Below are positions 28,105-59,183 of a stretch of 64,000 nucleotides of DNA, one piece after another (the stretch's first letter is position 1; each line of letters starts with the position of its first letter). The stretch is taken from NCBI RefSeq assembly GCF_030013595.1, contig NZ_CP122768.1. The stretch is one strand, 5' to 3'. The notes under the pieces are model-generated. The model saw only the letters and a program-made list of their open reading frames with translations. It searched no databases and was not told the DNA's origin. Origin of the DNA: Escherichia coli. GTDB lineage: Bacteria > Pseudomonadota > Gammaproteobacteria > Enterobacterales > Enterobacteriaceae. The position numbers were made by a program, and so were the translations under genes.

Positions 28105-28192
28105 GGTGAGGTGTCCGAGTGGCTGAAGGAGCACGCCTGGAAAGTGTGTATACGGCAACGTATCGGGGGTTCGAATCCCCCCCTCACCGCCA
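28105..28192 (+). tRNA. serW: tRNA-Ser (anticodon GGA), long variable arm, CCA encoded
   Basis: GGTGAGGTGTCCGAGTGGCTGAAGGAGCACGCCTGGAAAGTG...GGGGTTCGAATCCCCCCCTCACCGCCA; acceptor stem pairs, anticodon loop CTGGAAA. Confidence 0.9.
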
Positions 28193-36036: not shown

Positions 36037-37107
36037 TTATTTAATCCGGGCCATCGCGTTTCTCAGTGCCGAATCTGCACCTTCAGTTATCTCCTGGCTT
36101 TTCTGTAATACCGCCTCTGACCGGGTCAGTGCCTGACGCGCCGCCAGTGGTTTCCGGATATGCTCCATCGTCAGCATCGTGTCCTCGTAGCCCTGCTGAC
36201 GCCAGGCGTCGATATGTGCCGACGTGAAACTGAGCAGACCGCCACTGTTGCCACCATCACCTGCATGTTTCAGCCTTTTCCGGGGACGGATTTCAAGGAT
36301 TGTGGTGTCCGGAAAAGCCCGACGATCCCATAAAGAACCGTCACTCAGATGCGTCACAATCACCATATTGCATCCGGCATCCACCAGTGGCGTCACGGGA
36401 GTATTCCCCTGCCTGTTTCGCCATCCGCCCATCCCACCATCACCGTACATTGTTCCCTGAACCTCGCGGGGACGGAACAGCAGAGGCAGCGCGGCTGACG
36501 CCAGTAAAGCTTCTTTCTGCTGCCCGCGGGGCAGACTCTGGATATGCTGAAAAACGGCGTTTTTCGTGGTTCCGGCACCCAGTTCAGCACGAATGCAGTC
36601 AATAATATCCTGCATGCCTCCTTCTGTGGGGTACAGCGACACGTACAGCGGTAGCCCGTCAGCCAGAGCATCTGTATCAAGATAATGATCCATCAGCGCT
36701 GTCAGGGGCTCATCTGACAACAGCGGCTGAATCATCGGATTGTCGAACCCGTTGATTGTCGATATATGGCGAAAAAGCGTCGTAAGCAGTGCGCCCGCAC
36801 GTCCGGGGATCTGGCAGAGGTTCATGGCCTGAACCAGTTTTTTCAGCAATGAAAAGTAAACCGATCTGTTTACCGACAGAACCTGATTATTCCCCAGATG
36901 ATCCCAGAGCGCCTCCAGGCGTAAGGTGGCTTCTGACAGATCGGGAGAGGCCGCGATAATGGCACCATTGAGAGCCCCGATACTGGCTCCTGAGACCATA
37001 CTGATCTGTGCGCCGCACTCTGCCAGTGCCTTAACCACCCCCGCCTGATAAGCGCCCACCGCTCCGCCGCCGGACAGCACCAGCCCCGTTTGCATTTCTG
37101 TACTCAT
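36037..37107 (-). CDS. Patatin-like phospholipase
   Basis: GGGAVGAYQAG oxyanion motif, GASIG serine-lipase motif (GxSxG), YGDGG Asp motif; start overlaps upstream gene stop by 4 bp. Confidence 0.8.
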   Translation of the reverse strand: MSTEMQTGLVLSGGGAVGAYQAGVVKALAECGAQISMVSGASIGALNGAIIAASPDLSEATLRLEALWDHLGNNQVLSVNRSVYFSLLKKLVQAMNLCQIPGRAGALLTTLFRHISTINGFDNPMIQPLLSDEPLTALMDHYLDTDALADGLPLYVSLYPTEGGMQDIIDCIRAELGAGTTKNAVFQHIQSLPRGQQKEALLASAALPLLFRPREVQGTMYGDGGMGGWRNRQGNTPVTPLVDAGCNMVIVTHLSDGSLWDRRAFPDTTILEIRPRKRLKHAGDGGNSGGLLSFTSAHIDAWRQQGYEDTMLTMEHIRKPLAARQALTRSEAVLQKSQEITEGADSALRNAMARIK

Positions 37108-38009
37108 GCCTCTCCCTTCTGAAATATTTCATCAACCATACTTTCAGAGAGGCGTTCTGCAGAGCAGAGACGGGGCATACGAACCGGTAAGTGTTCTGCA
37201 GCCTGCGTGGTTGACCAGATCACAGGATGCCGCTCTTCACTGCACCAGTCCCCCAGCCAGTTAACCGCTTCATGCCATTCGTTATCAGCCTGTTCCCGGC
37301 GCTGACCACCAAGCCAGTCCAGTGTGTTCAGACGTACTGTTGCGCTACCGCCACTCTCCCGTGCCATCTGCGTTAATGCTTTATATCTGAGAATATCCAG
37401 TAACTGATTAACCTGGCCTGTTTCACCCTGACGAATCACATCACCAAACGCGCCCCAGCGAAGCTCTTCAAGCGCCACATAACAACGTCCGGCAGGGGAA
37501 AATGACGCGTATCGCCCGGCGCTCCACCACGAGAATATCTGCTCAAGATGTAACTGTGCCCGCTGAACCTGGTCAACACGGTGGAGTTTTTCCTCAAGAT
37601 GATTCAGTTTCTGATGAACCTGTTCTGCCAGAGTGAGTAACTGCTCCCGCGTGTCAGCCGAATAATGCGCCAGCCTGGCAGTATCACTGACCAGTGAACT
37701 GACCCTGTCGTTTACCCGGGTAATCGCGTAGTTTGTGGTGGCAAGTGACGTTGTCAGCTCCGTCAGCCAGCGCAGGGACGCCTCAACGCCCTGTGCAAGC
37801 GACGCATTGATGGCATTCTGCCGTGCAGCGCCTTCGCCGGTCAGCCCCTCTTTTAAACGCCGGAAGAACGTGCGCTCTCCGGCCGTGCGGATATGCTCCT
37901 GTGCAACATCGATTCCGTTTGCGAAATCAACCACAAATTTTTCAGGAAGACAGGTGAGTACCTGACATACCCGGTTATCAGCAATTTGTTGAATAAATGG
38001 TGAAGTCAC
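37104..38009 (-). CDS. Hypothetical protein (301 aa) between dynamin-like GTPase and patatin genes
   Basis: ORF overlaps both neighbours by 4 bp (ATGA), implying a coupled operon; no motif recognised. Confidence 0.6.
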   Translation of the reverse strand: MTSPFIQQIADNRVCQVLTCLPEKFVVDFANGIDVAQEHIRTAGERTFFRRLKEGLTGEGAARQNAINASLAQGVEASLRWLTELTTSLATTNYAITRVNDRVSSLVSDTARLAHYSADTREQLLTLAEQVHQKLNHLEEKLHRVDQVQRAQLHLEQIFSWWSAGRYASFSPAGRCYVALEELRWGAFGDVIRQGETGQVNQLLDILRYKALTQMARESGGSATVRLNTLDWLGGQRREQADNEWHEAVNWLGDWCSEERHPVIWSTTQAAEHLPVRMPRLCSAERLSESMVDEIFQKGEA

Positions 38010-40393
38010 AGCATTGTCTCCAGCTCTTCCCTCAGCGCCTTACTGTCAGTAATGAGCTCAGGAACCCTTTCATTTAATGCCTGAAGTCGCCCGGTAAGCC
38101 GTTCCTGCGCCTGCTGATCGCGTTTATGATCTTCAGAGCTCTGAATCAGCGTGTTACGCAGTTGTTCAACTTTCTCCCTGAATGCGCAGAAAAAGGCATC
38201 GATTTCCTGGCGGACGGGCTGGTTAATATCCTGCTCAATGGATGCCTGCAGCTCCCCGAAATATGCCCGGGTCAGTGACATAACTTCCTCTCTGGCCTTG
38301 TTGATATTGATCACGCTGCGACTCACATCCTCGTCATAGTTTTCCCAGCCCAGGTCACTGGTGCCAAACCATCGACAAACGGTTCCCCATACGCCACTCT
38401 GCCGACGGCGACGGGTGACGGTCTCCGTTCTTTCCTCCATAAGCGCACTCAGATTTATTTTTACCGCGAGCCGGGTCTGTAACTGGCTGACTGCCGGAAA
38501 ACTGATTTTTACGGTAAAGCCCTCATCCTCCAGGCGGGCATTGATGCGACCGGCAATGTTTTCTGTGGCGTACAGGGCCGTGCCACGAAAACCTGTTTCA
38601 ATCCCGCTGACGATTTTCTCCAGCTCAGGCCGGAACTGTGCTTCAGCCTCACGGTGCAGGCTGGTCACGGTCGATTCGATTTGCGTCATCAGTTCAAGGG
38701 CTGCCCTGCGATCACTGAATTTTATTTCGGGGCTGTCCGGATCAAAGTCCCGCATCCTGTCATGCTGATTTCCGGTTCCGAAAATATCGTGAAAGAAAGC
38801 GAATGCGTTTCTCTCCCGGGGCTGCGCTGAATTTTCTTCCTCCAGCATTTGCTGTTCTTTGCGTTTACCGCTTCTGAAATAGTCGTTCAGCTCCTCCTCC
38901 AGTGAGGCACAGACCTTCGTCAGTAATTCCCCGGTTTTGGTATTGATGTCCTCCATGGCCATTCTGACATCACCGGTCACCTGATTCTGACATTCCTCAA
39001 TCTCCTGGATATCCGCCAGCAGGCTGGTAATATGCGCCTGTAGTGACTGAATGCTTTGCTGCAGCCCCTGATGACGTAATGACAGATATTCGCTGACATT
39101 TTCTGCATTCTGCATCAGTTTTGCGGCGGCAGAGTCAACCGCCAGTGCCGCCGCTCTGGAATGGGAGCTCTGTATGACTTCCGTTATCAGTTGATCGATC
39201 AGAGATATATTCCAGAGTTTTTCTGCCTTTTTATTTACCTTAGTGCTGTCTTTCCAGTCGTCCTCTTCCACCATAGGTCCGAAAGCTTCCCTGATAAAAT
39301 CATCGACCCAGGCTTCATCAACCGGAAGCGCACCGTTTTTTCGTAACTCATGAAGCGCACGGTTAGCCAGGTACGCCTGACGTGATGAGCCGGGATAAAC
39401 GCGGGAGGCGGGCAGCACATCGCTGTTCAGCATTGCTGGCACCTTCTGGCGTACGGCATCCGCACCATCACCATTGCGATCTTTTTCATCGAATTTATTG
39501 ACCAGCACAAACAGACGACCGGCTGAGACGTCAGCAATGGCATTAAGCTCTTTACGAACCTCCTCATCGGCTTTCGAGTTCATCTGGGTGTAATCCATCA
39601 CCGCCAGCACCGCAGAGGCTTTCTGTAGTTGATCCCGCATCATCATTTCCATCTGTGGTTGTCCGGCTTCATTAGGGCCGGGGGTATCCAGCAGTGTGAG
39701 TGTTCCCTGACATGCATCCATTCCCACCAGGTGGCTGAACGCCACGTCGATCACCGGTAGTTTCTGCACTTCTGCGTATTCGTCAAAAGGAAATTCAGTC
39801 CCCATTGCCGCAGCAAGACGAACCAGGTCATTTAACGATGCCAGTCCGGTAAAGATTTCGTCTTCCCCGTGGTATTCATTTTTAAGCCAGACATCATCCG
39901 CCAGAATATCCAGTAGTTCGCGGGTATCCCCGGTTTGCTGCAGGGACTGTGCGACTTGCTGCCCTGCCGGGGTGGCGAGTTTTTCCTGCAGTGTGATTAA
40001 TAAATTGCGGACGGGCTGAATATGTTCCAGATGGAGGACCGGTTCCGTTTTTCCGGGAACGTGGCGGATCAATGTCGGTACCGAGGTCATGGGGCGGTTA
40101 CGGTTGGGCAGAATTTCCTGCCCCACAATGGCGTTGATGGTGGTTGATTTGCCCGCCTTCATCGTGCCGACCACAGCCAGCACCATCTCCCTGCGGGCGG
40201 TTTTGATTTGTTCGCCCTCCAGCTCCTCAATTCTTTTCAGCGCTTTCCGTTTATCAAAAAGCAGCCCGTTTTCGTTCTTACTGTCAGATAACACATCCGG
40301 CTCATCAACCATTTGCCGGAGCAGATTGATATTCAGTTGCAAAAGCCGGTCGGCTTCATCACAAAGCAGGGCGATGTTCTTTTCGTGCATCAT
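38006..40393 (-). CDS. Dynamin-family large GTPase (bacterial dynamin-like protein)
   Basis: 795 aa; N-terminal G-domain with P-loop GTMKAGKSTTINAIVG, DTPG-like G3 (LLDTPGPNE), long coiled-coil-like C-terminal region. Confidence 0.75.
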   Translation of the reverse strand: MMHEKNIALLCDEADRLLQLNINLLRQMVDEPDVLSDSKNENGLLFDKRKALKRIEELEGEQIKTARREMVLAVVGTMKAGKSTTINAIVGQEILPNRNRPMTSVPTLIRHVPGKTEPVLHLEHIQPVRNLLITLQEKLATPAGQQVAQSLQQTGDTRELLDILADDVWLKNEYHGEDEIFTGLASLNDLVRLAAAMGTEFPFDEYAEVQKLPVIDVAFSHLVGMDACQGTLTLLDTPGPNEAGQPQMEMMMRDQLQKASAVLAVMDYTQMNSKADEEVRKELNAIADVSAGRLFVLVNKFDEKDRNGDGADAVRQKVPAMLNSDVLPASRVYPGSSRQAYLANRALHELRKNGALPVDEAWVDDFIREAFGPMVEEDDWKDSTKVNKKAEKLWNISLIDQLITEVIQSSHSRAAALAVDSAAAKLMQNAENVSEYLSLRHQGLQQSIQSLQAHITSLLADIQEIEECQNQVTGDVRMAMEDINTKTGELLTKVCASLEEELNDYFRSGKRKEQQMLEEENSAQPRERNAFAFFHDIFGTGNQHDRMRDFDPDSPEIKFSDRRAALELMTQIESTVTSLHREAEAQFRPELEKIVSGIETGFRGTALYATENIAGRINARLEDEGFTVKISFPAVSQLQTRLAVKINLSALMEERTETVTRRRRQSGVWGTVCRWFGTSDLGWENYDEDVSRSVININKAREEVMSLTRAYFGELQASIEQDINQPVRQEIDAFFCAFREKVEQLRNTLIQSSEDHKRDQQAQERLTGRLQALNERVPELITDSKALREELETML

Positions 40394-43721: not shown

Positions 43722-44594
43722 TCAGAAGAAAATCCAGTTCCATACAGCGCGGGCAACAGAGACCACCGTGTCACGGACGGCACGCAGAACTGTGCGTGCA
43801 ACAGAGGCAACACAGACGCTCTCCACCGTGTCAAATATCCGGTCCACCGCACCGGTAAACTGTTCACGGGCCTGCCCCCGGACAGATTCCGTGCACAGCT
43901 CGTCCTGCAGGCGGGTCATCAGGGGACTGGCGGCATGGTCGGGAAGCGCTGTCATGAGCGCACTGACCAGCGTATCCAGTTCCCAGCCGGTACGGGCCGA
44001 TACGGCAACAACCGGATGTACGGGCCGGAACAGCCGGAATACCGCATCTGTTTTTTCGCGAATGTTCTGTTCCTGTGCGGGAGAAGGCTGAATACCTGCC
44101 ATATCCCATTCATGGCAGGGCTCTGTTTTGTCGGCCTGCGTCACCACAAACAGCACCTGCTGATGTCCCCGGTGCAGTATGTGTCGCCAGAAATACTCAT
44201 CCACAGACAGGGCACGGTCATCGGCTTTAATCAGCCACAGCACCAGGTCCAGTTCAGGCAGAATGTCACGGTACAGGGCTTCATACTCTGCATCCCTGTC
44301 CCGGCTCTCGCCCACCCCGGGCAGGTCAGTGATAACCATGCTGTGACCATGGCCACTCAGACGGAAGCGCCGCACTTCCCGGGTGCCGGCGTGAACATCA
44401 CTGACCGGGGTGACCTCCCCCTGAAACAGTGCATTACAGAGTGAGGATTTACCGGCCCCGCTTTTACCCATAATGCCAATCACGGGTTCGTGACTGGTGA
44501 GTTTGCGCAGATGTTCCAGGATGTGACGGGAAAGCGAGTAAGGCAGGGAGGAGAGCGGTTTTTCAATTGCCTCAATGGCATCAGACGGATTCAT
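43722..44594 (-). CDS. YeeP/YkfA/YfjP-family GTPase
   Basis: P-loop GIMGKSGAGKSSLCNALF; conserved position upstream of Ag43 gene as in CP4-44. Confidence 0.75.
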   Translation of the reverse strand: MNPSDAIEAIEKPLSSLPYSLSRHILEHLRKLTSHEPVIGIMGKSGAGKSSLCNALFQGEVTPVSDVHAGTREVRRFRLSGHGHSMVITDLPGVGESRDRDAEYEALYRDILPELDLVLWLIKADDRALSVDEYFWRHILHRGHQQVLFVVTQADKTEPCHEWDMAGIQPSPAQEQNIREKTDAVFRLFRPVHPVVAVSARTGWELDTLVSALMTALPDHAASPLMTRLQDELCTESVRGQAREQFTGAVDRIFDTVESVCVASVARTVLRAVRDTVVSVARAVWNWIFF

Positions 44595-48680: not shown

Positions 48681-49062
48681 GTTCACAGATAAAACACTCT
48701 CCAGGAAACCCGGGGCGGTTCAAACCTGATTCTGGAAAAGGACTTTGTGGATTGTTGCTATTGCCAGTGAGATTGAATGAAGTCGTTTTAACTCGCTTTG
48801 AATACGTCTTGCCCCCAGATTTCGCTGAGAACGTAACTCCAGAATCAGAGCGACTTCGCAAGTGCCGGTTTTCGTTGATGGTGAACGCTTGGGGCGACGG
48901 CTGTGGCTTTCCAGACCAGCGATGCCCTGAGCCAGATATCTGCGCCACCATTTTACGCAATGTGGGCCGAGAAATGCCACAGCGACGGCATACAAATCCC
49001 GCATCACCGGACGTTTCATAGAGTTTTACCCACTGTAGCCGCTGCTGAATTTCCCTGTTCAT
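48562..49062 (-). pseudogene. Frameshifted N-terminal fragment of a transposase (HTH region)
   Basis: MNREIQQRLQWVKLYETSGDAGFVCRRCGISRPTLRKW-like N-terminus, overlapping alternative-frame ORF 48720..49019; family not assigned with confidence. Confidence 0.4.
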
Positions 49063-49412
49063 AATTTGGCATTAGTTCAGCTCAATCCCGACTTAAAAAG
49101 TCCCTACAGGATGTTCCGGACCTGAGGCACAGTTCATATCCTTATCCATAAAAAATTTAGCTATGTCTATAGCATTAATCTTGACAAGACGACGTTAGGG
49201 CCTGGCGATGAATCATTTCCCCTGCCAGATATCCTTTGGGGTGCACCAGAACTACCGTTTTATATCTATATAACTGAAACGTCCCTCGCCATCCTTCATA
49301 TTTTGATGTAGTAACACCATTCACTTTCATCTACCCCCCGTTTTATTAACATATAGTAAAAATCACCTCGCCGCATTTTATTCTTTTGAAGTAAAATCAT
49401 TTACCAGTTCAC

Positions 49413-50021
49413 TTAAAGCTCTCTTTTGTTCATCATCATACAGAGATTGAATCCGGAATTTAATCTCTTCTGCAACCAGTCTTGCATCGGGCTCATAAAA
49501 TAATTTGTTATTCGCTGTTTCTGATGTTCAGGCTGGTCTTCCATATTTCGTAAAACCAGATGAAATAATATATCATAAAGTGCGCAATGCCATGAATAAC
49601 CATCATTGGTTAAAATAAGCTCCCAAACCCGCTCCTGCTCGGCAATAAGCTGCAGAACAAAGGACTCAACCTGTTCTGTTTGTTCGGGGGCAACACGGTA
49701 TAGCGGAGCAATCACAGCAAAAGATAGTTCATTTAACCAGGATTCCGCTTCCTTCTCGCTCCTGAACGGTGGACAGTTTTGTATTCTTCGTTCGTATTCA
49801 CGGGTAATCTGCTCCAGAATATCCTCCGGCGGTGTCAGCCACTTATTCCTGAGCAATACACTGGTTGATGGATGACAGCTGGCTATTTCAGCAATAATTT
49901 CACGTAATGTCTCCGGGCTGAACTTCTTCAGCTGATTGTAGTGCTCCCGGGTAAAACCATGTTCATCGCATAAAAGTTGCCATGTCATTGATATACTGTT
50001 TGCCATTCCTTGCTTCATCAT
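49413..50021 (-). CDS. Hypothetical protein (202 aa) downstream of PerC-like gene
   Basis: ORF in same orientation and tight spacing with 50042..52245 cluster. Confidence 0.45.
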   Translation of the reverse strand: MMKQGMANSISMTWQLLCDEHGFTREHYNQLKKFSPETLREIIAEIASCHPSTSVLLRNKWLTPPEDILEQITREYERRIQNCPPFRSEKEAESWLNELSFAVIAPLYRVAPEQTEQVESFVLQLIAEQERVWELILTNDGYSWHCALYDILFHLVLRNMEDQPEHQKQRITNYFMSPMQDWLQKRLNSGFNLCMMMNKREL

Positions 50022-50041
50022 TAATACCTGTTACCTGAATA

Positions 50042-50350
50042 TCAACAGACCGGTGTACCTTTTCTGAATACCTCCCCGGACGGAGTGGCAATCCCCATTC
50101 GCCTCAGCGTGGCATCTGCAGCTTTCGCCACCTCGCTGATATCCAGCGTTTCAGGTAGCGGCGGGGACGATATCTGCGCCAGACAATAATTCCGGCGCAA
50201 CAACAACCACTCCCGTTGTGCTTCTGTACATTCAACATTTCCCATAACAAAAAGCCAGCGGTCAGAAGCTCTGCGCCAGCAACCAGCAGCCTCCAGTTTC
50301 TGCGCAACCATGTCTTCCACAACTTCCGGGGTACTCTTTTTCCTGCTCAA
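50042..50350 (-). CDS. PerC/Pch-family transcriptional regulator-like protein
   Basis: ...LEAAGCWRRASDRWLFVMGNVECTEAQREWLLLRRNYC... resembles PerC-family core (from memory). Confidence 0.55.
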   Translation of the reverse strand: MSRKKSTPEVVEDMVAQKLEAAGCWRRASDRWLFVMGNVECTEAQREWLLLRRNYCLAQISSPPLPETLDISEVAKAADATLRRMGIATPSGEVFRKGTPVC

Positions 50351-50389
50351 AACATTAACTCACTGAAATAATATACATATCTGACGGTC

Positions 50390-51028
50390 TCAGCGAACCG
50401 TCCATGCCGGGCTGAAATCCTCTTCCTGAAACAGCTCCGTCAGCCCGCTAATCTGTTTCAATCTGAGAACTTCATCCTGGTCCATACCCAGCTCCGTACC
50501 AATGCGTTCATTCGTCCAGCCCAGGCGCGACAGGTCCCTGACAATATCAGACATTGAGGTTATCTGATGTTTGCCCCTGGCCCGGTTATGTCGGATGGTC
50601 GCAGCAATACGTGAGGCCTGTCCCTTTCTCTCCGGATTAATACAGACCACCGGCAGCCAGCCCTTCAGACGTTTTCCCGTACCTGCTTCCCTGCCCAGCA
50701 CCTGGCGATGAAAACCATCCACCACCAGGTAATGGTTCTTTTCCTCAGACACCACCACCGGTTGTGTGAAACCATCTTTCTCCAGTGACTGCTTCAGCAG
50801 TTTCTTCTCACCCGGCGCCATGACATTAGGATTGTAATCATTGGCCACCACCTCATCTGCTTTTACCCACAGCACACAGTCCACTGGCTCATGTGCAAAA
50901 GGACTGACTTCATGAAGCACTCTGCGCAGGTGATTAAGGGCCTGTATGGTCTCTTCTTCTGGTCGTTCCTGGCTGAAGTACTGACGAATCATGTTGCCAA
51001 TTATCTCCGGTGTCACAGAATCCCCCAT
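50390..51028 (-). CDS. ParB/Srx-like nuclease-domain protein (IbrB-like)
   Basis: 212 aa, ...YNPNVMAPGEKKLLKQSLEKDGFTQPVVV...YLVVDGFHRQ... ParB-N-like motif; overlaps upstream gene by 16 bp. Confidence 0.65.
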   Translation of the reverse strand: MGDSVTPEIIGNMIRQYFSQERPEEETIQALNHLRRVLHEVSPFAHEPVDCVLWVKADEVVANDYNPNVMAPGEKKLLKQSLEKDGFTQPVVVSEEKNHYLVVDGFHRQVLGREAGTGKRLKGWLPVVCINPERKGQASRIAATIRHNRARGKHQITSMSDIVRDLSRLGWTNERIGTELGMDQDEVLRLKQISGLTELFQEEDFSPAWTVR

Positions 51029-52245
51029 TCCTTCCTCCTTTCTTTCATACGCTGCAGATAACGTTCATAGTGCCGGGGTTTGTTCGGACTGAAGGAGAGG
51101 GTCCGGTACCAGAAATCATTCTTTATAAGTGTCTTACAGATACGCCGCCAGGACGGAATATCCCGGCTCCCCAGGTCATTCTCCTGTTCATCCGGGATGT
51201 CATCCGGGAAGCCCCGCGTCTGATACCAGCGCAGGTAGACAGCAATTTTATTACGGTAATGTTCTGCCGTTCTTTCCGGCATCACATCCAGCAGGAACAT
51301 CGCATAGCTGCGCCAGGTATGATGGGCTGGTTTTGATATACGTTTACGCAGGGCAAAATAGGCACCGCTTTCATTGGCATAAAGCGCCCCGCTGGCAGCG
51401 CCTGACACCCGCTCACACATCCTGGCCCAGGTTTCCGGCTCCAGAACATGGTAAAGCCACAGCCCCTTACGTTGTTCAGGACCAAAAGGTTCACAGACAC
51501 GCATGTTGCGTAACGGCACGTCGGCACGGTACATCAGGTCATACAGAGGATTGTAAATGGCACAAGCTCTGGCGTTATATATCCAGATATCGCGGGCTTT
51601 CCAGTCATACAACGGATACATGGTGTAATAAAACCCTTCAGGCGATGCCGTGGTCCAGGGCTTATCATCGGCATATCTCAGTTTGCGCTGAGACACCAGC
51701 CCCATAAAGCGATTGAGGGATTCATCCGCACGAACACCGGTCAGCACTGCCACTCCACACCGGTTACCGGCAAACCAGGAAGAAAATGCCGGAACAAATT
51801 CTTCAAACGTCATGGCATACCGGAAAAAGGGAAAATATGTCATATCCGTAATGGCCTCTTCCGGTGGCTGGCGAACCCAGGTCACTCCTGGCTCCCAGCA
51901 TATCCACTCCGGCTGAAACTGCGAGACGCCGTTTACCGTGGTCAGGGGAAGTGCCACCCAGTAAAAGGTTTCCGTCACATCATGGTACATTTCCCGCATC
52001 TTCTGAATATGTTCAATGGTGCACCGATACTGGGCCTCCCAGTCAATGAACAGAACAGAGAAATGACGTTTTCTCCTGCGGGCCACCTCTGCCACAAGAT
52101 GGAAAAGCACGGTGGAATCCTTTCCACCTGAAAAAGACAGACATACCGACGGAAATGTTTCAAAAATCCACTCAATGCGGGCGATTGCAGCACGCAAAAC
52201 ATTTTCTCCGGTAAGGATTTTTTCGGTTAAAAGCGTATCACTCAT
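51013..52245 (-). CDS. PAPS-reductase-like PP-loop ATPase domain protein (IbrA-like); start at ATG 52245 with AGGAAA RBS
   Basis: PP-loop SFSGGKDS; large C-terminal extension; paired with ParB-like gene. Confidence 0.65.
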   Translation of the reverse strand: MSDTLLTEKILTGENVLRAAIARIEWIFETFPSVCLSFSGGKDSTVLFHLVAEVARRRKRHFSVLFIDWEAQYRCTIEHIQKMREMYHDVTETFYWVALPLTTVNGVSQFQPEWICWEPGVTWVRQPPEEAITDMTYFPFFRYAMTFEEFVPAFSSWFAGNRCGVAVLTGVRADESLNRFMGLVSQRKLRYADDKPWTTASPEGFYYTMYPLYDWKARDIWIYNARACAIYNPLYDLMYRADVPLRNMRVCEPFGPEQRKGLWLYHVLEPETWARMCERVSGAASGALYANESGAYFALRKRISKPAHHTWRSYAMFLLDVMPERTAEHYRNKIAVYLRWYQTRGFPDDIPDEQENDLGSRDIPSWRRICKTLIKNDFWYRTLSFSPNKPRHYERYLQRMKERRKEWGIL

Positions 52246-52745
52246 TTTCCTGGCTTTATGTCGAATAATTCTGTTTATACATTCAGGCAAACTTCATTAA
52301 TAACTCACCGCTTTGGGGATAAATAATAACAACAAAAATCTTCAGATATTAACCTGGTTGTTGGATTTGTTATCACATCCTTTATCCACCTGCTTCTTAC
52401 TGGTAACACACCTGGAAAATCCATGCATTTTCAACATATACTATCCTTTCAACTTGTAAATAAGAAAATATGATGCAGATGGTGAACAATTCAAATATCA
52501 TTTTGCAGGAAGTATTCACTGTAATAGAATTACCCCCTGATAAAGTTTATTCACTAAGGAATTATTCAACAGAAACATTCCCTGTTAGCTTTGAGCAATA
52601 GCACTTATTTTTATATGTATCAGGAATACGTACGTTGATGTAACCAAAACAAAGAAGCCTGTGTCCATGGGGTTCGTACAATTGTGTGTGGCACATGACC
52701 AAATCAGGTTTGAGACCTCCCGCTGCAATATTTTTTATTCAGATT

Positions 52746-55427
52746 TTAGCCTGTCAGGCCTGACAGAAACGCTCCCAACTTCCCTTCTATATCACTGTCT
52801 ATAGTACGTAATCTTAGCAATGGCAGGCCGCATTTCTTCAGTATACTGTTTTTAAGTTCATCACGTTCAGCCTGAACACTGGTCAGATGATAACCTCCAT
52901 CCACTTCAATAACCCCTAATGGAGTCTTCCCGACCTTATAGTAAACAACAAAGTCACAACTGGCCCGGTTACGCATGAATAACTGTTCACGGTGTGTAAA
53001 ATCCCCCCGCTCCAGCGACACCAACTGATTCAGCGCTATTTGTGAATGAAACATCATACTCCGATAACTATCCTGCGACAGGATATCCCGCAACAGGCAG
53101 GCCACAATCTGTTCTGACTTAAAGTGTGAATCATTTGAATTCAATCTACTATTCAGTCGTTCCAGTGATTTGTCATACTCACTGTACAGCAAATCAAATG
53201 CTGATATGACCGGGCTCTCGAAAATCTCTCCGTCATCAGCGTAGTATTTGATGTAACGAATCAGCGCCGCAATATGTCCAGCGTGGCGTTCAAATACATC
53301 ATTACCAGTCACCAGCGTAAATTTATTTCGGGCCCTTGAAACAGCGACATTCACCAGTTCAGGATTATCAACAAACGCGATGTTCCGACTGTGCTGGCTG
53401 CTGCGCTTCTTATCCAGCACAGTGGAAAACACAATTTCATCGCACTCCCGTCCCTGAAATTTATGCACCGTCGATTTCACAAAATCAGCAGGCAGCACTT
53501 TTTCAGCCAGATTAACCTGTGCATTATATGGGGCAATGTATCCCCTGCTACTTTCTTCATCCCAGTAATGACCTTCCAGAGATTCAAGCTCCCTGAGATT
53601 TGAAAAATTACGGGTATGGTTTCCTTTTGCCGTGATGACCAGAGATAATGAGGCTTCACCGGAATCAACCGTTAACGGTATCAGAGCATTATCATAAAAC
53701 TGCTTATTACAAAATTGAATGATTTTAGGATGACAACGATAATGCTCTTTAAGAAGGGTTACTGGCACCATGTTCCTGAACAACATACAAACCGAATCAA
53801 GTAGACTATATTTCTCACAATTATAGTATTCTGCCGGTGGAGATGGGCTGTTCGGGAGTAATACAGGAACATGTGGAAGTTGCTTACGATCCCCTACAAC
53901 GATTACATTACGGGCACATCCCAGTCCCAGAATGCCCGGAACAATATCCTGCTGCGAGGCTTCATCAATAATAACATAATCAAGAAGGGCCCCCTTGCCG
54001 ATAGAGTTAATAATCGAATGCGTACTGCTACCAATAATCGGAAAACGCTTTATAAAACGGTCAAATTCATCCCTGTATGTCTCTGCCGAGAATGAACTTC
54101 TTGTTGAAACATTTCTTCGCAGATGTTGCTTTAAATAAAGCATAGACCATGATGTCAGGCGCCCCAGTAAAATTTTAAAATCAGATTTTTTAAATACTTC
54201 CTCATATTCATTCAGAGAAATTTGTTTTTCCCGGATATTTTTTTCATAATAAGAAAGCTGAAGAGAAGTAAATAGCGCCAGCCTTCTCTCCGGAATCATC
54301 AATGGTTTGACTTTCAGTATCATGAAGTTTAACAACAAATCAATTCTGTTTCTGAATCCAATCCGCCTGTCAGAAAGGTAATGAATATAAGCCATCAGGT
54401 CGGTTGTTTTTTGTGAGGAAAATCGGTATTTGTGAGAAAAAAGCTCCTCCGGTCGAAGATTCTGACTCTGCCATTGCTGCAGGTATTTATACTCAATATT
54501 CAGCTCATTAATTTCTGCTTTTAACGAAGCGACCTGGTTAATGGCATTCAGGTGTTTTTTCACTTGTTGAAGTACATCATCAATCGCATTTGCAGACGGT
54601 GAGTCAGGTAAGACTTCCTCAGAACGCGAAATCGACGTTGAAAAAAACTGTTGCCTGTTCCCCGTACTCCCCAGTCGTGCCATCACATATCCCAGTTGCT
54701 GTTTGTCCATCTTTTCATAAACATTACTGACAGCTGAGTTATTATTGGACAAAATTGCCACTGTTTTATTCTGAATTAATATATTAGCAACAATATTGAG
54801 TATAGTCTGTGTTTTACCTGTTCCAGGTGGTCCTTCAATAACTGAAATCTGTGAGGAAAATGCCCGTTCGACAGCCAGCAACTGACTTTCATTAAGACCA
54901 AACGGAAAAATCAAACCCCATGGCGAATCACGTTTTTTACTCTGTCCTGAACAGTATGCATGCAAGGCGGTATCCGGATGAGGAACTATTTTCTTTATCT
55001 GCCTAAGGATATTCTCATCGATATTTCTGTTATTACCACGGGCATAAAAAATACGTTCATTAGCCACCCTACACAAGTAATTAAACACGGCATGCTCTGT
55101 AAATGCTGAACACTGTTGAAAGTCAAGGCCGGTCGTTTTCATGATGTAGGGTCGTTCACCCTCGCGGTAATAAACAGCAGCATATTTATCACCATATATA
55201 ATAACCAGTTCAGCCCGGGATGTTACAGCGTTCCCTTTCCTTTCGAGGAAAACATTTCGCAAATTTACAGTTGGCGTTATCTGACATACAGAAAGCGGAC
55301 GAGTATATTTTCTCCCGCTGCGAAAATGACAGGTCAGCATAACCTCTCTGTCGTCATTTCCAGCCCACAGCGTCCAGTCGGTAATTTTATGAGTCTTATT
55401 TTCACCGTCAACACAAATCGTGACCAT
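52746..55427 (-). CDS. Superfamily-1 (Upf1/DNA2-like) helicase with unknown N-terminal domain and C-terminal restriction-endonuclease-like domain
   Basis: Walker [11 protein letters not shown], Walker B IIDEASQ, motif VHKFQGRECD; C-terminal ...VYYKVGKTPLGVIEVDGGYHL...ERDELKN... endonuclease-like signature. Confidence 0.75.
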   Translation of the reverse strand: MVTICVDGENKTHKITDWTLWAGNDDREVMLTCHFRSGRKYTRPLSVCQITPTVNLRNVFLERKGNAVTSRAELVIIYGDKYAAVYYREGERPYIMKTTGLDFQQCSAFTEHAVFNYLCRVANERIFYARGNNRNIDENILRQIKKIVPHPDTALHAYCSGQSKKRDSPWGLIFPFGLNESQLLAVERAFSSQISVIEGPPGTGKTQTILNIVANILIQNKTVAILSNNNSAVSNVYEKMDKQQLGYVMARLGSTGNRQQFFSTSISRSEEVLPDSPSANAIDDVLQQVKKHLNAINQVASLKAEINELNIEYKYLQQWQSQNLRPEELFSHKYRFSSQKTTDLMAYIHYLSDRRIGFRNRIDLLLNFMILKVKPLMIPERRLALFTSLQLSYYEKNIREKQISLNEYEEVFKKSDFKILLGRLTSWSMLYLKQHLRRNVSTRSSFSAETYRDEFDRFIKRFPIIGSSTHSIINSIGKGALLDYVIIDEASQQDIVPGILGLGCARNVIVVGDRKQLPHVPVLLPNSPSPPAEYYNCEKYSLLDSVCMLFRNMVPVTLLKEHYRCHPKIIQFCNKQFYDNALIPLTVDSGEASLSLVITAKGNHTRNFSNLRELESLEGHYWDEESSRGYIAPYNAQVNLAEKVLPADFVKSTVHKFQGRECDEIVFSTVLDKKRSSQHSRNIAFVDNPELVNVAVSRARNKFTLVTGNDVFERHAGHIAALIRYIKYYADDGEIFESPVISAFDLLYSEYDKSLERLNSRLNSNDSHFKSEQIVACLLRDILSQDSYRSMMFHSQIALNQLVSLERGDFTHREQLFMRNRASCDFVVYYKVGKTPLGVIEVDGGYHLTSVQAERDELKNSILKKCGLPLLRLRTIDSDIEGKLGAFLSGLTG

Positions 55428-55667
55428 ATTCTTACTCAGAAATTATCATTTAACTTACGGAAAATTGTTAAGGCACTCCCGATATTAGCTCCGGAGGATT
55501 TTCCACAACTCCGGGACTGTTAACATATTTCTGCCTGCCATATATACATTGAATTTAGTCATAACAGTCAATACCAGAATTACAGGAATGCGATGCCGAT
55601 ACGCTGGTTATTGAATACTGGTAGCCCCTGAGCACTAATTCATCACGATACTCTGTATTTACTGTTT

Positions 55668-56801
55668 TCACTGCTTTTTACAACCATTCCCCCAGGTAAA
55701 ATGCTGCTCCTCCGGTGATGGCTGTGTCAGAAACTGCCATCCCGGAATAGCCACGCTGACCGCCAGCAATGCCGCACAGACACCAGCCACAAACGGTTTC
55801 AGAAACGTGGGCGGGGATTTCTGAAGGGAGGGTGACTGCTCCGCCTGCACTTTCCCCTTGCGATTATCAAGGCTCAGTGCATCCAGACGCACCGCGCCAT
55901 TTGCCGCAAGCAGCCCTTCCCGGTTATCCACGCTTCCCGGCAGACTCAGCGAAAAATCCCCTGTTCCCGTCTGAATCAGACTGCCTTTACGATTTGACAG
56001 GCTTTGTGCCGATATCTGCAGTGTGTCGGCATTTATCGTACCGCCATTACTGCTGAACTGCCCGGCAGTCCGGGCGGAAAGCGTATCGGCACTCAGTTGC
56101 GCATTCTGTGTAGACAGATTTCCACTGGTTGCATTCAGCTCAGTATGTTGTCCCTGTATCCGGCTGTTACCTAAATCCAGCCCCTGCTCAATGTCCCGTA
56201 AATCCAGCAGAGAACCTTCGTGTGCCGGGAATGAGGAATACAACTGAATATAGTCATCACTGTCCGGTGTCAGACGCACATGTCGCACAACACCGGGAAT
56301 AATAACCAGCCGGAGGATACCGCTTTTTAAATCCTGCGAAGGTGCCAGAACACGGGTGGTGACATAACCATGATCGACCAGACGGTTCTGCAATGTACTC
56401 ATCAGCAGATTAATTCCTTTCGCCCCCAGGCAATGCCCGACCGCCCCGTTGGCGATTTTTTGTAAAGGCAGCCAGTGTGGTAACGCATCAGCCCCCTTCA
56501 GTTCCGTCTGTTTAATCTGAAAACAGGGCGTTTCAACAGGAAAATTAATCTTATGGGCAAAAGAGCCAGGTGCAGAAAGGCGAACATCAGGGGCTGAAGG
56601 CGTCAGTTGTTGCTCAAGGGCTTCCTGACGCTGCTGCTGAATGATAAATGCTTCATCTCCGCTACGCCGGACATCCGCTGCCTGAAGAGATAAAGGCGAT
56701 AATAAAGCAGACATCAGTGTCAGTGACAGCAAGGACGGACAGCGCCGGAATAAGCTTTGTTCCTCAGTCCTCTCGTTCCTGCAACATAATTTTCCAGTCA
56801 A
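55668..56801 (-). pseudogene. Probable remnant of a two-partner-secretion locus: TpsB-like (ShlB/FhaC/CdiB) signal peptide and POTRA region fused to hemagglutinin-repeat-like sequence
   Basis: N-terminus ...[26 protein letters not shown]...[11 protein letters not shown]... then Ser/Asn/Gly-rich repeats ...[10 protein letters not shown]...; too short for an intact TpsB barrel. Confidence 0.35.
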
Positions 56802-57388
56802 ACGAAAAACCTTTTATTCATGTCATACCAACAATCACCAGCCTCCTGACGATACCTCCCACCATGTTTTGCGATGGCACGCTACCGCCCTTCCGGTATT
56901 TACCCGCATCAACCGGTACCAGAATGCTGAGTAACAAACCAGCTAGAATTGACTTAATTTTGATCATTATAGAATAATGATCTGAACTACAGCAACATGA
57001 CAGATTTATCGATCGATATAACACAAATGAACAGTTCTTTATTCTGACAAATATCGCAAAAACAGCACATTACAAAATTTATAACCATAATTACTGGAAA
57101 AGTGCAGAAAATTATTCCACTGAATGCTTTTAATACAGTTGGTTAGCTTAAAAAATAGCAATTTTTGATTTCAGTCATTGAAAGTTGCAATGTTTGACGA
57201 TTCAACAGCATTTAAGTGAGTTTCAGGATATGGGAAGGACATGAAAGGAGGAGCGCAATAAAATACACAGGAAGAAGGGGAAAATGTTTCGTAAAAACAG
57301 AAAATTAACAGCGCACATCAGGAAACGCAGTCTCCTGATTCAGTGCTACCACATGAAAATTTAGTTAACTGTTACCGTACTAAAATTT

Positions 57389-57580
57389 ATGTCAGAAGAT
57401 GTTCCATTACCGAAAGTCAATCAGCGATACAAAGACGATCATGGTGCGCTTGTCACCCTGACCAGTGTTGAGGAAACCCGGGTGGTGTTTATGCAGGACG
57501 GCTATCCGCATCCCTGCATGCGACCGATGTACAACTTTCTGGGAAAATTCAAACCCGAACCCCGGGAAGAAACAGAATAA
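57389..57580 (+). CDS. Small hypothetical protein
   Basis: 63-aa ORF in intergenic position; weak. Confidence 0.25.
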   Translation: MSEDVPLPKVNQRYKDDHGALVTLTSVEETRVVFMQDGYPHPCMRPMYNFLGKFKPEPREETE

Positions 57581-57632
57581 AACGAAATCCCTGCCGGCAA
57601 TCACACTACCTGATAGCAGCATAATCCACTTA

Positions 57633-57941
57633 TTAATTCTCATCCCCGGAGACAAGCCCAGAAAACCACTCCGGGTGTTCACTGTATGCCGTGTTCAGCG
57701 CATCCCTGGAAACGTTTATATAAAAGCTGTCCTGCAATTTGCGGGTAACAACTTCTGCCAGGCGATTCCGGTTATCCACCAGTCCGGCATAACCTCTCTC
57801 TGCCAGCCACTCATTCAGTTCATGTTCCAGAGACAGATTGATAATATCATAATCGGACCTTGCCATTCCCGTTTCCTTAGCACATGTTTTCAGGCACGGG
57901 GATAAAGTATAAAGAATGTCATACTGCTGCTGCCAGAGCAA
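57633..57941 (-). CDS. Small hypothetical protein (true start may be internal ATG at MARSDYDIINL...)
   Basis: ORF co-oriented with adjacent YfjJ-like pseudogene. Confidence 0.3.
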   Translation of the reverse strand: MLWQQQYDILYTLSPCLKTCAKETGMARSDYDIINLSLEHELNEWLAERGYAGLVDNRNRLAEVVTRKLQDSFYINVSRDALNTAYSEHPEWFSGLVSGDEN

Positions 57942-57961
57942 TATTCCCCCTGATGGTTGTA

Positions 57962-59183
57962 TCAGAGATGGTATGCCGGTACTTTGCGGGTTGTTCCCGT
58001 CAGGTTATCGTGCACCTCCACGGTCGTGGTCACCACCGGCATTCCGGCCTTTCTCAGCCTCAGAACATCAGCCGCAATACGCTGACTGCCAAACCAGAAC
58101 AGGCCGTCCAGTGCAGTCACCAGTAAACCCGCCTCCAGTGCATACTTCAGCCGTTCACGGGGCGCTTTCACTTCCCGGGCAACCTGCTGATATGGCAATG
58201 ATGTGTTTTCATTCCCAACCACGCGACGAATACGGTGAGACAGATGATACCGGTATGTATCCGGCACACCAGAAAGGCTGGCCTTCAGGCTGTACACGCA
58301 GCCAAACCGTTTATCGTTAAACACCTCATTTTTCTGGCTGATGCCCCATTCTTCACGCAGCGCGGCAATCAATTGCGGTGTACGGGTAAGCAGCAAGCGA
58401 AAAGGCAGTTCAAAACTGGTGACGTAATCCACATTCAGCAGTGCAATACGCAACCGTTCTTCTGGCCCGGCCTCTGTCTGCCGGCACTCCTCCAGAACAT
58501 CCTGCCACTGCCGGCGAAGACGGGGGGATTCGTTCCGTTCTGTAAAACAGTATTTATCCGCCAGATAGTCAATTCGTGTACGCATACTGAAAGGAATTCC
58601 GTATAAAGATTCAGCAGACAAAACTTTATCAGCCAGTAAAAATTAACGGAAGCATTGATATTCCTCCCGACAATCACCGGATGATTGTTGCAATAACCTG
58701 CGACATAAAGGACTGAACAGCCGTTTTTAACGCCACGTATTGCCCTGATGAACCAGGCCGGGCCACCCGAAAACATCTTTCCACCCGGCATTGTCCGCCA
58801 GCACTTATCACCGACCAGGTCTGTTGCAGTAAATCCACCAGTTGCGCACATTCTTCATCAGCCATGACGCCGACTCGCGGATGGCAAATACTCGTCTGGC
58901 TGAGCAGCAACAGACATCGTATCTGTGCTCCTTCATGTTGTTCCCGCAACCAGCGTAATACCACCGGCGCTGATGGGCTGACCGTGTGATTATGCTCCGT
59001 AATACGTTCGTGTACCCGTCGGTGAAAGGAACTACAAAATGTCTGAATCTGTTGACCATAGATTCCTTCTGCCGAATAGAGCGTGAAGTGAAATGCCAAC
59101 AGATTTGGCCAGTGGTCCACCGCCTGCTGAACAAAACGCCGGATTTCCCCCGGCTCTGAAATTAAGGCTTCGGTTATTTGCAC
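57962..59183 (-). pseudogene. Split YagK/YfjJ-like (inovirus Gp2-type) gene, two consecutive ORFs 58674..59183 and 57962..58621
   Basis: Two adjacent same-strand ORFs whose combined length matches an integrase-proximal prophage gene family; interruption near 58620..58675. Confidence 0.4.

Follow-up and report, generated by a model that had tools for sequence, protein, structure and literature searches.

The helicase-nuclease class of bacterial immunity holds several described systems that bear on the gene reported here. Nhi and NERD+UvrD are single-protein nuclease-helicases in which a PD-(D/E)XK nuclease is combined with a superfamily 1 (SF1) helicase; in Nhi the nuclease is N-terminal and the motor is a UvrD-like SF1A rather than a Upf1-like SF1B helicase. 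Hhe, reportedly the single-gene system of Gao et al. 2020, joins a Upf1-like AAA_11/AAA_12 helicase and a Vsr/DUF559-type nuclease in one protein, its models running to about 1800-1900 residues and including DUF4011. The effector of Mokosh is a phospholipase D (PLD) nuclease, and type II Mokosh (MkoC) is also a single helicase-nuclease protein. In type III-B CoCoNuT systems the predicted CnuH protein has a UPF1-like motor interrupted behind Walker A by a coiled-coil insertion, and a Vsr-like nuclease is fused to it directly; ahead of the CnuH ATPase stands an oligonucleotide/oligosaccharide-binding (OB) fold domain, which stalk helices flank in types II and III-A (PMC11090510). Here we describe a gene on the minus strand (positions 52746-55427) of a 64,000-nucleotide stretch of Escherichia coli DNA (contig NZ_CP122768.1; hereafter the window), which encodes an 893-residue helicase-nuclease and is best read as an uncharacterised, stand-alone defence candidate that is a member of no named system.

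We consider this helicase-nuclease to be self-contained and horizontally mobile and to defend, most likely, against phages or other invading DNA, a reading to which we assign a probability of roughly 0.6. A first-pass annotation of the window had proposed a single-gene antiphage protein; the class was right and the proposal is plausible, but its family label and its argument from genomic context were both wrong. If our reading is true, a compact and very widespread single-gene system, built from a Upf1-type motor, a Vsr-type nuclease and an accessory module found in no other family, is added to the helicase-nuclease class of bacterial immunity.

Domain anatomy and invariant residues

The open reading frame (ORF) runs intact from an ATG through 893 codons to a stop codon, and RefSeq holds the identical complete CDS as an 'AAA domain-containing protein' (WP_179840170.1). 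The gene is 100% identical in porcine enterotoxigenic E. coli (ETEC) strains and 99.9% identical in O145:H28 and other Shiga toxin-producing E. coli (STEC). Among its carriers, ETEC1746 has the identical allele and O145:H28 RM13514 one at 99.9%. It is not a chance frame, since at least 100 full-length homologues (56-96% identity) are among the matches listed and 448 matches were confirmed in species-representative genomes, and the ATG start is supported by the N-terminus common to the homologues, MV(T/S)I..DG.(D/N)KT. At 41.9%, the GC content of the gene lies below that of the whole window (49.8%) and of the flanking windows (about 51-52%).

The layout of the protein was mapped with Pfam and AlphaFold2 (AF2), the model of the whole protein having a mean predicted local distance difference test score (pLDDT) of 75, with RecA2 modelled poorly, and a separate model of residues 1-176 a pLDDT of 88. 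Pfam places AAA_11 at residues 178-518 (5e-20), AAA_12 at 549-583 and 625-707 (8e-14) and DUF2726 at 794-879 (2.4e-12); residues 1-177 have no Pfam match. In the AF2 model, residues 1-110 (window positions 55098-55427; here and below on the minus strand) form an N-terminal module of two small beta-barrels with ten strands, and three helices in a stalk-like position (residues 111-177; 54897-55097) join these barrels to RecA1. The first part of RecA1 (178-278; 54594-54896), matched by AAA_11, AAA_19 and AAA_30, carries the Walker A motif GPPGTGKT at residues 199-206 (54810-54833). It is followed by an all-helical insertion (279-445; 54093-54593) with helices of 45, 36 and 23 residues in the AF2 secondary structure, and then by the second part of RecA1 (446-535; 53823-54092), located by Pfam and alignments, with the Walker B/motif II sequence DEASQ (488-492; 53952-53966) and GDRKQLP (512-518). 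RecA2 (536-735; 53223-53822) corresponds to AAA_12 and contains HYRCHP (562-567), QGRE (658-661; 53445-53456) and VAVSRA (694-699). A helical linker in the AF2 model (736-790; 53058-53222), 69-71% conserved among close homologues, leads to a compact alpha/beta DUF2726 domain (791-893; 52749-53057) in which IEVDGGYH occupies residues 840-847 (52887-52910).

Searches of the motor converge. A profile search against PDB sequences matched IGHMBP2 (6e-22) and UPF1 (6e-19) and also SEN1/SETX and DNA2, while Foldseek with the AF2 model returned SETX first (3e-18), then IGHMBP2, UPF1 and DNA2, with E-values of about 1e-18 to 1e-15. Together with the Pfam matches these results identify the motor as a Upf1-like SF1B helicase, and the protein has the AAA_11/AAA_12 core, Walker A, a DEAxQ motif II and the residues of motifs IV-VI that mark this group. 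With DNA2, IGHMBP2, SETX/Sen1 and UPF1 it shares the RecA1/RecA2 core, its motifs and the placing of accessory modules on RecA1; those proteins, however, are conserved housekeeping enzymes, and the DNA2 nuclease is N-terminal, whereas here an accessory, mobile bacterial gene carries a Vsr-like nuclease at the C-terminus.

The C-terminal domain is a predicted Vsr/DUF559-related nuclease of the PD-(D/E)XK superfamily, in fold as in activity. DUF2726 is its best Pfam family, found in 18 of 18 homologues (best 1e-16) and with the isolated domain at 7.8e-14; DUF559 and MTES_1575 are weaker, secondary matches, DUF559 reaching 1e-3 or better in six of the 18. Around D825 and E841-x-D843 the AF2 model has its strands and helix (strands 823-830 and 836-843, helix 850-865) in an order that fits a PD-(D/E)XK core. 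A survey of that superfamily enters DUF2726 both alongside Vsr/DUF559 and separately (PMC3424549), and another paper describes DUF2726 as a DNase with the restriction-endonuclease fold that occurs in fusions with N-terminal domains of abortive infection (PMC3710099).

Conservation was measured in 42 close and 43 distant homologues, the latter about 35% identical. In all 85 sequences D825, E841, D843, H847, D856 and K859 of the nuclease are invariant, as are K205, D488, E489, R564, Q658 and R698 of the helicase, so that both enzymes must be under strong purifying selection. The accessory parts behave differently: in the distant set identity is 15% in the N-terminal barrels, the fastest-diverging part of the protein, and 18% in the helical insertion, the second fast-diverging region, as against 38-50% in the catalytic domains (42-50% in the RecA segments). 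Such divergence is the pattern expected for recognition or regulatory surfaces. The N-terminal module of about 176 residues, barrels and helices together, is specific to this family and occurs in no other. As modelled, strands and helices precede RecA1 in a way reminiscent of the barrel and stalk in Upf1-like proteins, a likeness claimed for position alone. In topology, the RecA1 insertion takes the place that a coiled-coil insertion takes in CnuH helicases (PMC11090510).

Much of this anatomy had been anticipated by the first-pass annotation. The ORF, its 893 residues and its motifs were given correctly, with the strand left unstated; the call of a Upf1/DNA2-like SF1 helicase is borne out by Pfam, the PDB profile, Foldseek and the invariant motif residues; and the N-terminal domain, held there to be unassignable from sequence, is indeed without a Pfam family. 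For the C-terminus a DUF559/Vsr-type domain had been named. The motif does align to an endonuclease family and 'Vsr-type' is about right for this member of the PD-(D/E)XK superfamily, but the best family is DUF2726 rather than DUF559.

Comparison with Hhe, Mokosh and CnuH

The label 'Hhe-like' fails as a statement of family membership. The NCBIfam model NF042953 scores 75.8 bits against a cut-off of 2000, with its best stretch at residues 181-297, and the PADLOC Hhe model (PDLC02194) reaches 56 bits over residues 181-256, some 76 residues around Walker A. Hhe and the present protein each combine an AAA_11/AAA_12 helicase with a Vsr/DUF559-type nuclease in a single chain; the latter, however, has half the length or less, lacks DUF4011 in the Pfam search, begins with another N-terminal module and has DUF2726, not DUF559/MTES_1575, as its best nuclease family. 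We therefore reject Hhe as its family.

In a profile search with PADLOC the best match was the Mokosh helicase MkoA (2.7e-43, residues 178-729), followed by MkoC (2e-40), in both cases over the helicase core. The MkoA match begins only at position 616 of the 1112-position profile, MkoA having a long extra N-terminal region; Pfam finds no PLD domain in our protein, and no MkoB-like gene adjoins it. Membership in Mokosh is thus also rejected, the matches being limited to the helicase core and the PLD nuclease being absent. PADLOC gave no Nhi/NERD+UvrD match, and the ProA, PLuB, IGHMBP2-family and RecD models were set aside because their matches fall far below curated cut-offs or cover the helicase core alone.

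The closest literature description of this architecture, compared by description, is that of type III-B CnuH. Both are UPF1-like SF1 helicases with a helical insertion after Walker A, a beta-rich domain with a stalk and a C-terminal Vsr-like nuclease. They differ at the N-terminus, where type III-B CnuH has a Sul7s-like winged helix-turn-helix and our protein the double small barrel, and in their company: type III-B CnuH shows near-complete linkage to the McrB/McrC homologues CnuB/CnuC and to CnuD and CnuA, whereas no CnuB/CnuC gene is adjacent in the window and no partner is conserved in 81 homologue loci.

These likenesses raise the question of substrate. In an RNA-directed form of defence, the Upf1-like motor would track phage transcripts and the nuclease, or translational stalling, would destroy RNA, as proposed for Mokosh and most CoCoNuT systems. 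The ranking of MkoA as best PADLOC match is in keeping with this, and the closest solved structures are those of the RNA helicases IGHMBP2, UPF1 and SETX/SEN1, although IGHMBP2, SETX and DNA2 act on DNA too. RNA targeting has likewise been argued for CnuH systems, including type III-B with its fused Vsr-like nuclease (PMC11090510). The characterised members of the Vsr/DUF559 group, however, cut DNA, as is well established for Vsr and as holds for the homing endonuclease in PMC3424549, and the Pfam search of the protein found no RNA-binding domain of the CSD, YTH or HEPN type. An RNA substrate is therefore in our judgement unlikely, and we favour defence at the level of invading DNA.

How a DNA-directed defence protein of this build would work can be sketched. 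The Upf1-type SF1B motor would use ATP to move along single-stranded nucleic acid, probably 5' to 3' given what is known of Upf1, IGHMBP2 and DNA2 in its family; likely substrates would be the invader's single-stranded DNA tails or its intermediates of replication and recombination. The motor would deliver or license the C-terminal Vsr-like endonuclease, presumably metal-dependent and acting through D825, E841-x-D843 and H847, to cut the invader's nucleic acid, and protection might follow from direct degradation or from abortive infection. Target recognition, autoinhibition or self-association may be set by the two fast-evolving accessory modules, the barrel pair plus stalk at the N-terminus and the helical insertion in RecA1. 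More tentatively, at somewhat short of even odds, the protein could be a 'minimal CnuH', that is, a stand-alone immune protein in which barrels and insertion act as a so far undescribed sensor of a phage cue and which needs no McrBC-type or other partner. Were that so, E. coli would offer a single-gene model for Upf1-family helicases in immunity. Among eukaryotic antiviral factors the Upf1 family includes UPF1, MOV10 and ZNFX1.

Distribution, mobility and a split allele

Of 5426 complete E. coli genomes, 647 carry the helicase-nuclease gene (12%, or about one in eight), STEC O145 and O157 and porcine ETEC among them. Outside the species, the 448 confirmed matches extend over several phyla, with Firmicutes copies at 46-57% identity and others in Bacteroidota and Actinobacteria. 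The family is widespread yet patchy and has been transferred between phyla.

Two comparisons define the unit that moves. First, nucleotide homology between the E. coli, Salmonella, Serratia and Edwardsiella copies extends from about 35 bp before the ATG to 0-13 bp past the stop codon, with no conserved flanking non-coding element or small ORF since it stops at the ORF borders; the gene therefore moves as a bare cassette. Second, ORF clustering of the 81 loci found no conserved neighbour family, the commonest occurring in ten loci at scattered positions (a LysR-type regulator by the Pfam label of one member), from which it follows that the unit is a single gene. Terminal repeats, or an integrase or transposase travelling with the gene, were not seen in the 81 loci or in the cross-genus nucleotide comparison. 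A phage or plasmid origin was rejected: the gene is essentially absent from phage genomes, where it matched two 'Bacteriophage sp.' contigs, both uncultured and fragmentary, and true plasmids seldom carry it, the 18 plasmid records being mostly megaplasmids.

A bare cassette without conserved flanks might instead be selfish and further its own spread or retention, by homing-like nuclease activity, by island maintenance or by keeping out competing elements, rather than protect the host. Homologues do often adjoin insertion sequence (IS) elements, resolvases and integrases and sit in an island hotspot 3' of guaA, and the homing endonuclease of a group I intron is entered with Vsr, DUF559 and DUF2726 in the PD-(D/E)XK survey (PMC3424549). 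Yet nothing of a mobile element's own machinery travels with the gene, an 893-residue helicase would be unexpected in a homing endonuclease, and the neighbours of known function are mainly defence and not transfer genes (see below). We regard a selfish function as improbable.

Observations at the guaA site and at one other suggest a recurrent island insertion hotspot. A homologue follows guaA directly in Photobacterium and Pantoea and is also found downstream of it in Paraburkholderia, and in both Photobacterium and Nitrincola a homologue lies upstream of a cytidine-deaminase/SLT/purL block. Genes flanking the Nitrincola copy encode RES-Xre, an RNase T-like protein, a 1443-residue protein without a Pfam match and a KaiC-like ATPase.

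Within E. coli the gene is not always intact. In O157:H7 TW14359 a one-nucleotide deletion in the A6 run at codons 164-165 (54933-54938), leaving A5, splits it into a 171-residue 'hypothetical protein' and a 722-residue 'AAA domain-containing protein'. A 61-nucleotide probe over the run was matched exactly in 424 records and differently in 218, about a third of the 642 E. coli carriers. Three of the listed copies are split: each spans 60 nucleotides and has been annotated as a pair of genes. A fourth on the list, from the band of lower identity, matches in part and is annotated as one gene, so the deletion may be missing from some of the 218. An inactivated or split allele may thus be present in as many as about a third of E. 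coli carriers, which fits a dispensable and possibly costly gene. Some O157:H7 genomes keep the intact A6 form; slippage or lineage-specific loss is possible. The O157:H7 frameshift allele is a natural, ready-made loss-of-function control.

The same distribution bears on whether the protein might be an accessory enzyme of DNA repair or recombination, a bacterial counterpart of DNA2 that has 5' flaps or ends as its substrates and acts on behalf of host or island. Its sequence and fold both match DNA2, and the combination of helicase and nuclease is well established for DNA2, AddAB and RecBCD. The DNA2 match is limited to the helicase core, however, with neither a DNA2-type N-terminal nuclease nor an Fe-S domain found by Pfam. 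A gene carried by 12% of E. coli genomes, differing at the frameshift site in a third of its carriers, transferred between phyla, atypical in GC content and without a conserved chromosomal context or a conserved repair-gene neighbour is not what such a role would lead one to expect, and we hold it to be improbable.

Genomic neighbourhoods and the region beside ibrA

In the window the helicase-nuclease gene has a POTRA-domain gene upstream and an IbrA-like gene (51013-52290) downstream, the latter followed by an IbrB-like gene (50390-51028), both on the minus strand; a PerC gene lies nearby. All are part of a tellurite-resistance/adhesin island at tRNA-Ser (28105-28192) that also contains ter, iha, cah, IS66 and CP4-type modules. 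In other strains the place beside ibrA holds other genes. Strain 405 (locus L008, 345-10235) has, between ibrA and the conserved DUF4222 flank, a NERD+UvrD gene (PADLOC C3a187, 5e-136) in place of the helicase-nuclease, while Shango SngC (3.5e-278) lies beyond the ibrAB-PerC module on its other flank. CFT073 (L009, 11828-16463) has, upstream of ibrA, an Old-family nuclease gene (1e-47) and a Mokosh MkoC gene (2e-213) truncated by IS3. The region beside ibrA-ibrB-PerC (about 49400-57000 of the window) is therefore exchangeable and looks like a hotspot for defence cargo in tRNA-linked islands, and the helicase-nuclease is a plausible single-gene defence candidate because known anti-phage genes occupy its place in other strains. 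If true, this exchangeable hotspot in tRNA-linked E. coli islands should help in finding more systems.

Homologues in other species also have defence genes near them. PADLOC found, within two genes of a homologue, full-length PD-Lambda-4_A (Alkalimonas), Dsr1 (Billgrantia), the candidate PDC-S50, a type IV methyl-directed restriction enzyme, mREase_IV (Neobacillus), MTase_II with PDC-S15 (Tissierella) and PDC-S15 (Beduini). RES-Xre and HipAB toxin-antitoxin pairs adjoin some homologues. No housekeeping context was found. We consider the defence-gene neighbourhood suggestive, not statistical.

The defence context had earlier been argued from the island itself, on the ground that it contains IbrAB-like genes. 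These genes do adjoin the helicase-nuclease, but IbrAB is not an established defence marker, and PADLOC gave no strong defence match in the other island genes tested, with weak LeoBC-, LeoA- or BrxP-like similarities; on that account we do not regard the remainder of the window as a defence island. The case for a defence context is instead that the ibrAB slot carries MkoC, Old and NERD+UvrD genes elsewhere and that homologues adjoin PD-Lambda-4, Dsr1 and type IV restriction genes. A functional linkage to ibrAB was likewise rejected, since ibrAB occurs in about 2388 genomes as against the 647 with the helicase-nuclease and the two are unlinked in other genera.

The presence of the PerC and IbrAB regulators bears on one further explanation, in which the protein, as a helicase acting on RNA, would control the expression of host or island genes. 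A motility effect has been reported for the OI-172 helicase in O157:H7 (PMC3681947); that helicase, however, is a different gene in a different island. A regulator would have no need of strictly conserved nuclease residues, and outside E. coli the helicase-nuclease is not linked to ibrAB-PerC; ibrAB, moreover, occurs in about 2388 genomes as against its 647. We regard a regulatory role as very improbable.

Several observations weigh against a defence function. The family has no model of its own in PADLOC-DB v2 or among the named NCBIfam antiphage models, and literature searches, within the papers that could be searched, found nothing on this gene and nothing that ties the helicase-DUF2726 family to defence. 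A profile search of the C-terminal domain against PDB sequences gave no match even at E-values up to 10, and AF2 confidence is low in RecA2. The rest of the E. coli island is virulence and fitness cargo, not defence genes. Among homologues, four sampled loci had no PADLOC defence match in their neighbours, and neighbours are metabolic or transposase genes alone at many loci (L035, L038, L040, L050 and those of P. agarici, Salmonella and Edwardsiella). The neighbourhood sample is small, partly hand-picked and without a formal background control; ORF calling was crude in high-GC genomes, where spurious frames arose, and the PADLOC sampling therefore excluded such loci. Should the defence role be refuted, the gene would be one more accessory helicase of unknown role.

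Immediately around the gene, a consensus scan located a promoter-like site on the minus strand just upstream of the ATG (TTAACA, an 18-nucleotide spacer and GATAAT; 55442-55471; 10 of 12 matches), possibly a promoter of its own, on the weak evidence of that scan alone. The 455-bp gap between the helicase-nuclease and ibrA contains just short unsupported ORFs, and no Rfam family was found in positions 49000-58000. The POTRA-domain gene just upstream (55668-56801, minus strand) is an apparent remnant of a two-partner secretion (TPS) locus; in strain SK6988 the matching sequence falls inside a cluster that encodes a ShlB/FhaC transporter, a TPS-domain protein and a toxin-activating acyltransferase. 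In Edwardsiella (L003-L005, 1-710) an ibrA-like gene of the PAPS-reductase/DUF3440 type, with about 70% nucleotide identity to the window ibrA, lies upstream of the helicase homologue at a distance of about 10 kb; transposase fragments occur in the interval, and the gene may be left over from a common island or be there by coincidence.

Elsewhere in the window, the island starts at tRNA-Ser(GGA) with a CP4-type module that extends to about 33700 and encodes DUF4942, a CbtA/YeeU toxin-antitoxin pair, DUF987, a JAB/RadC-like protein, an antirestriction protein and DUF932. A minus-strand operon at 36037-40390 encodes a patatin-like phospholipase together with RdcB-family and dynamin-family proteins, and a separate GTPase-family gene lies at 43722-44594. 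PADLOC gives these genes a weak similarity to LeoBC or LeoA of Eleos (E-values of 9e-6 to 3e-8), at which level they are not assignable to a known system.

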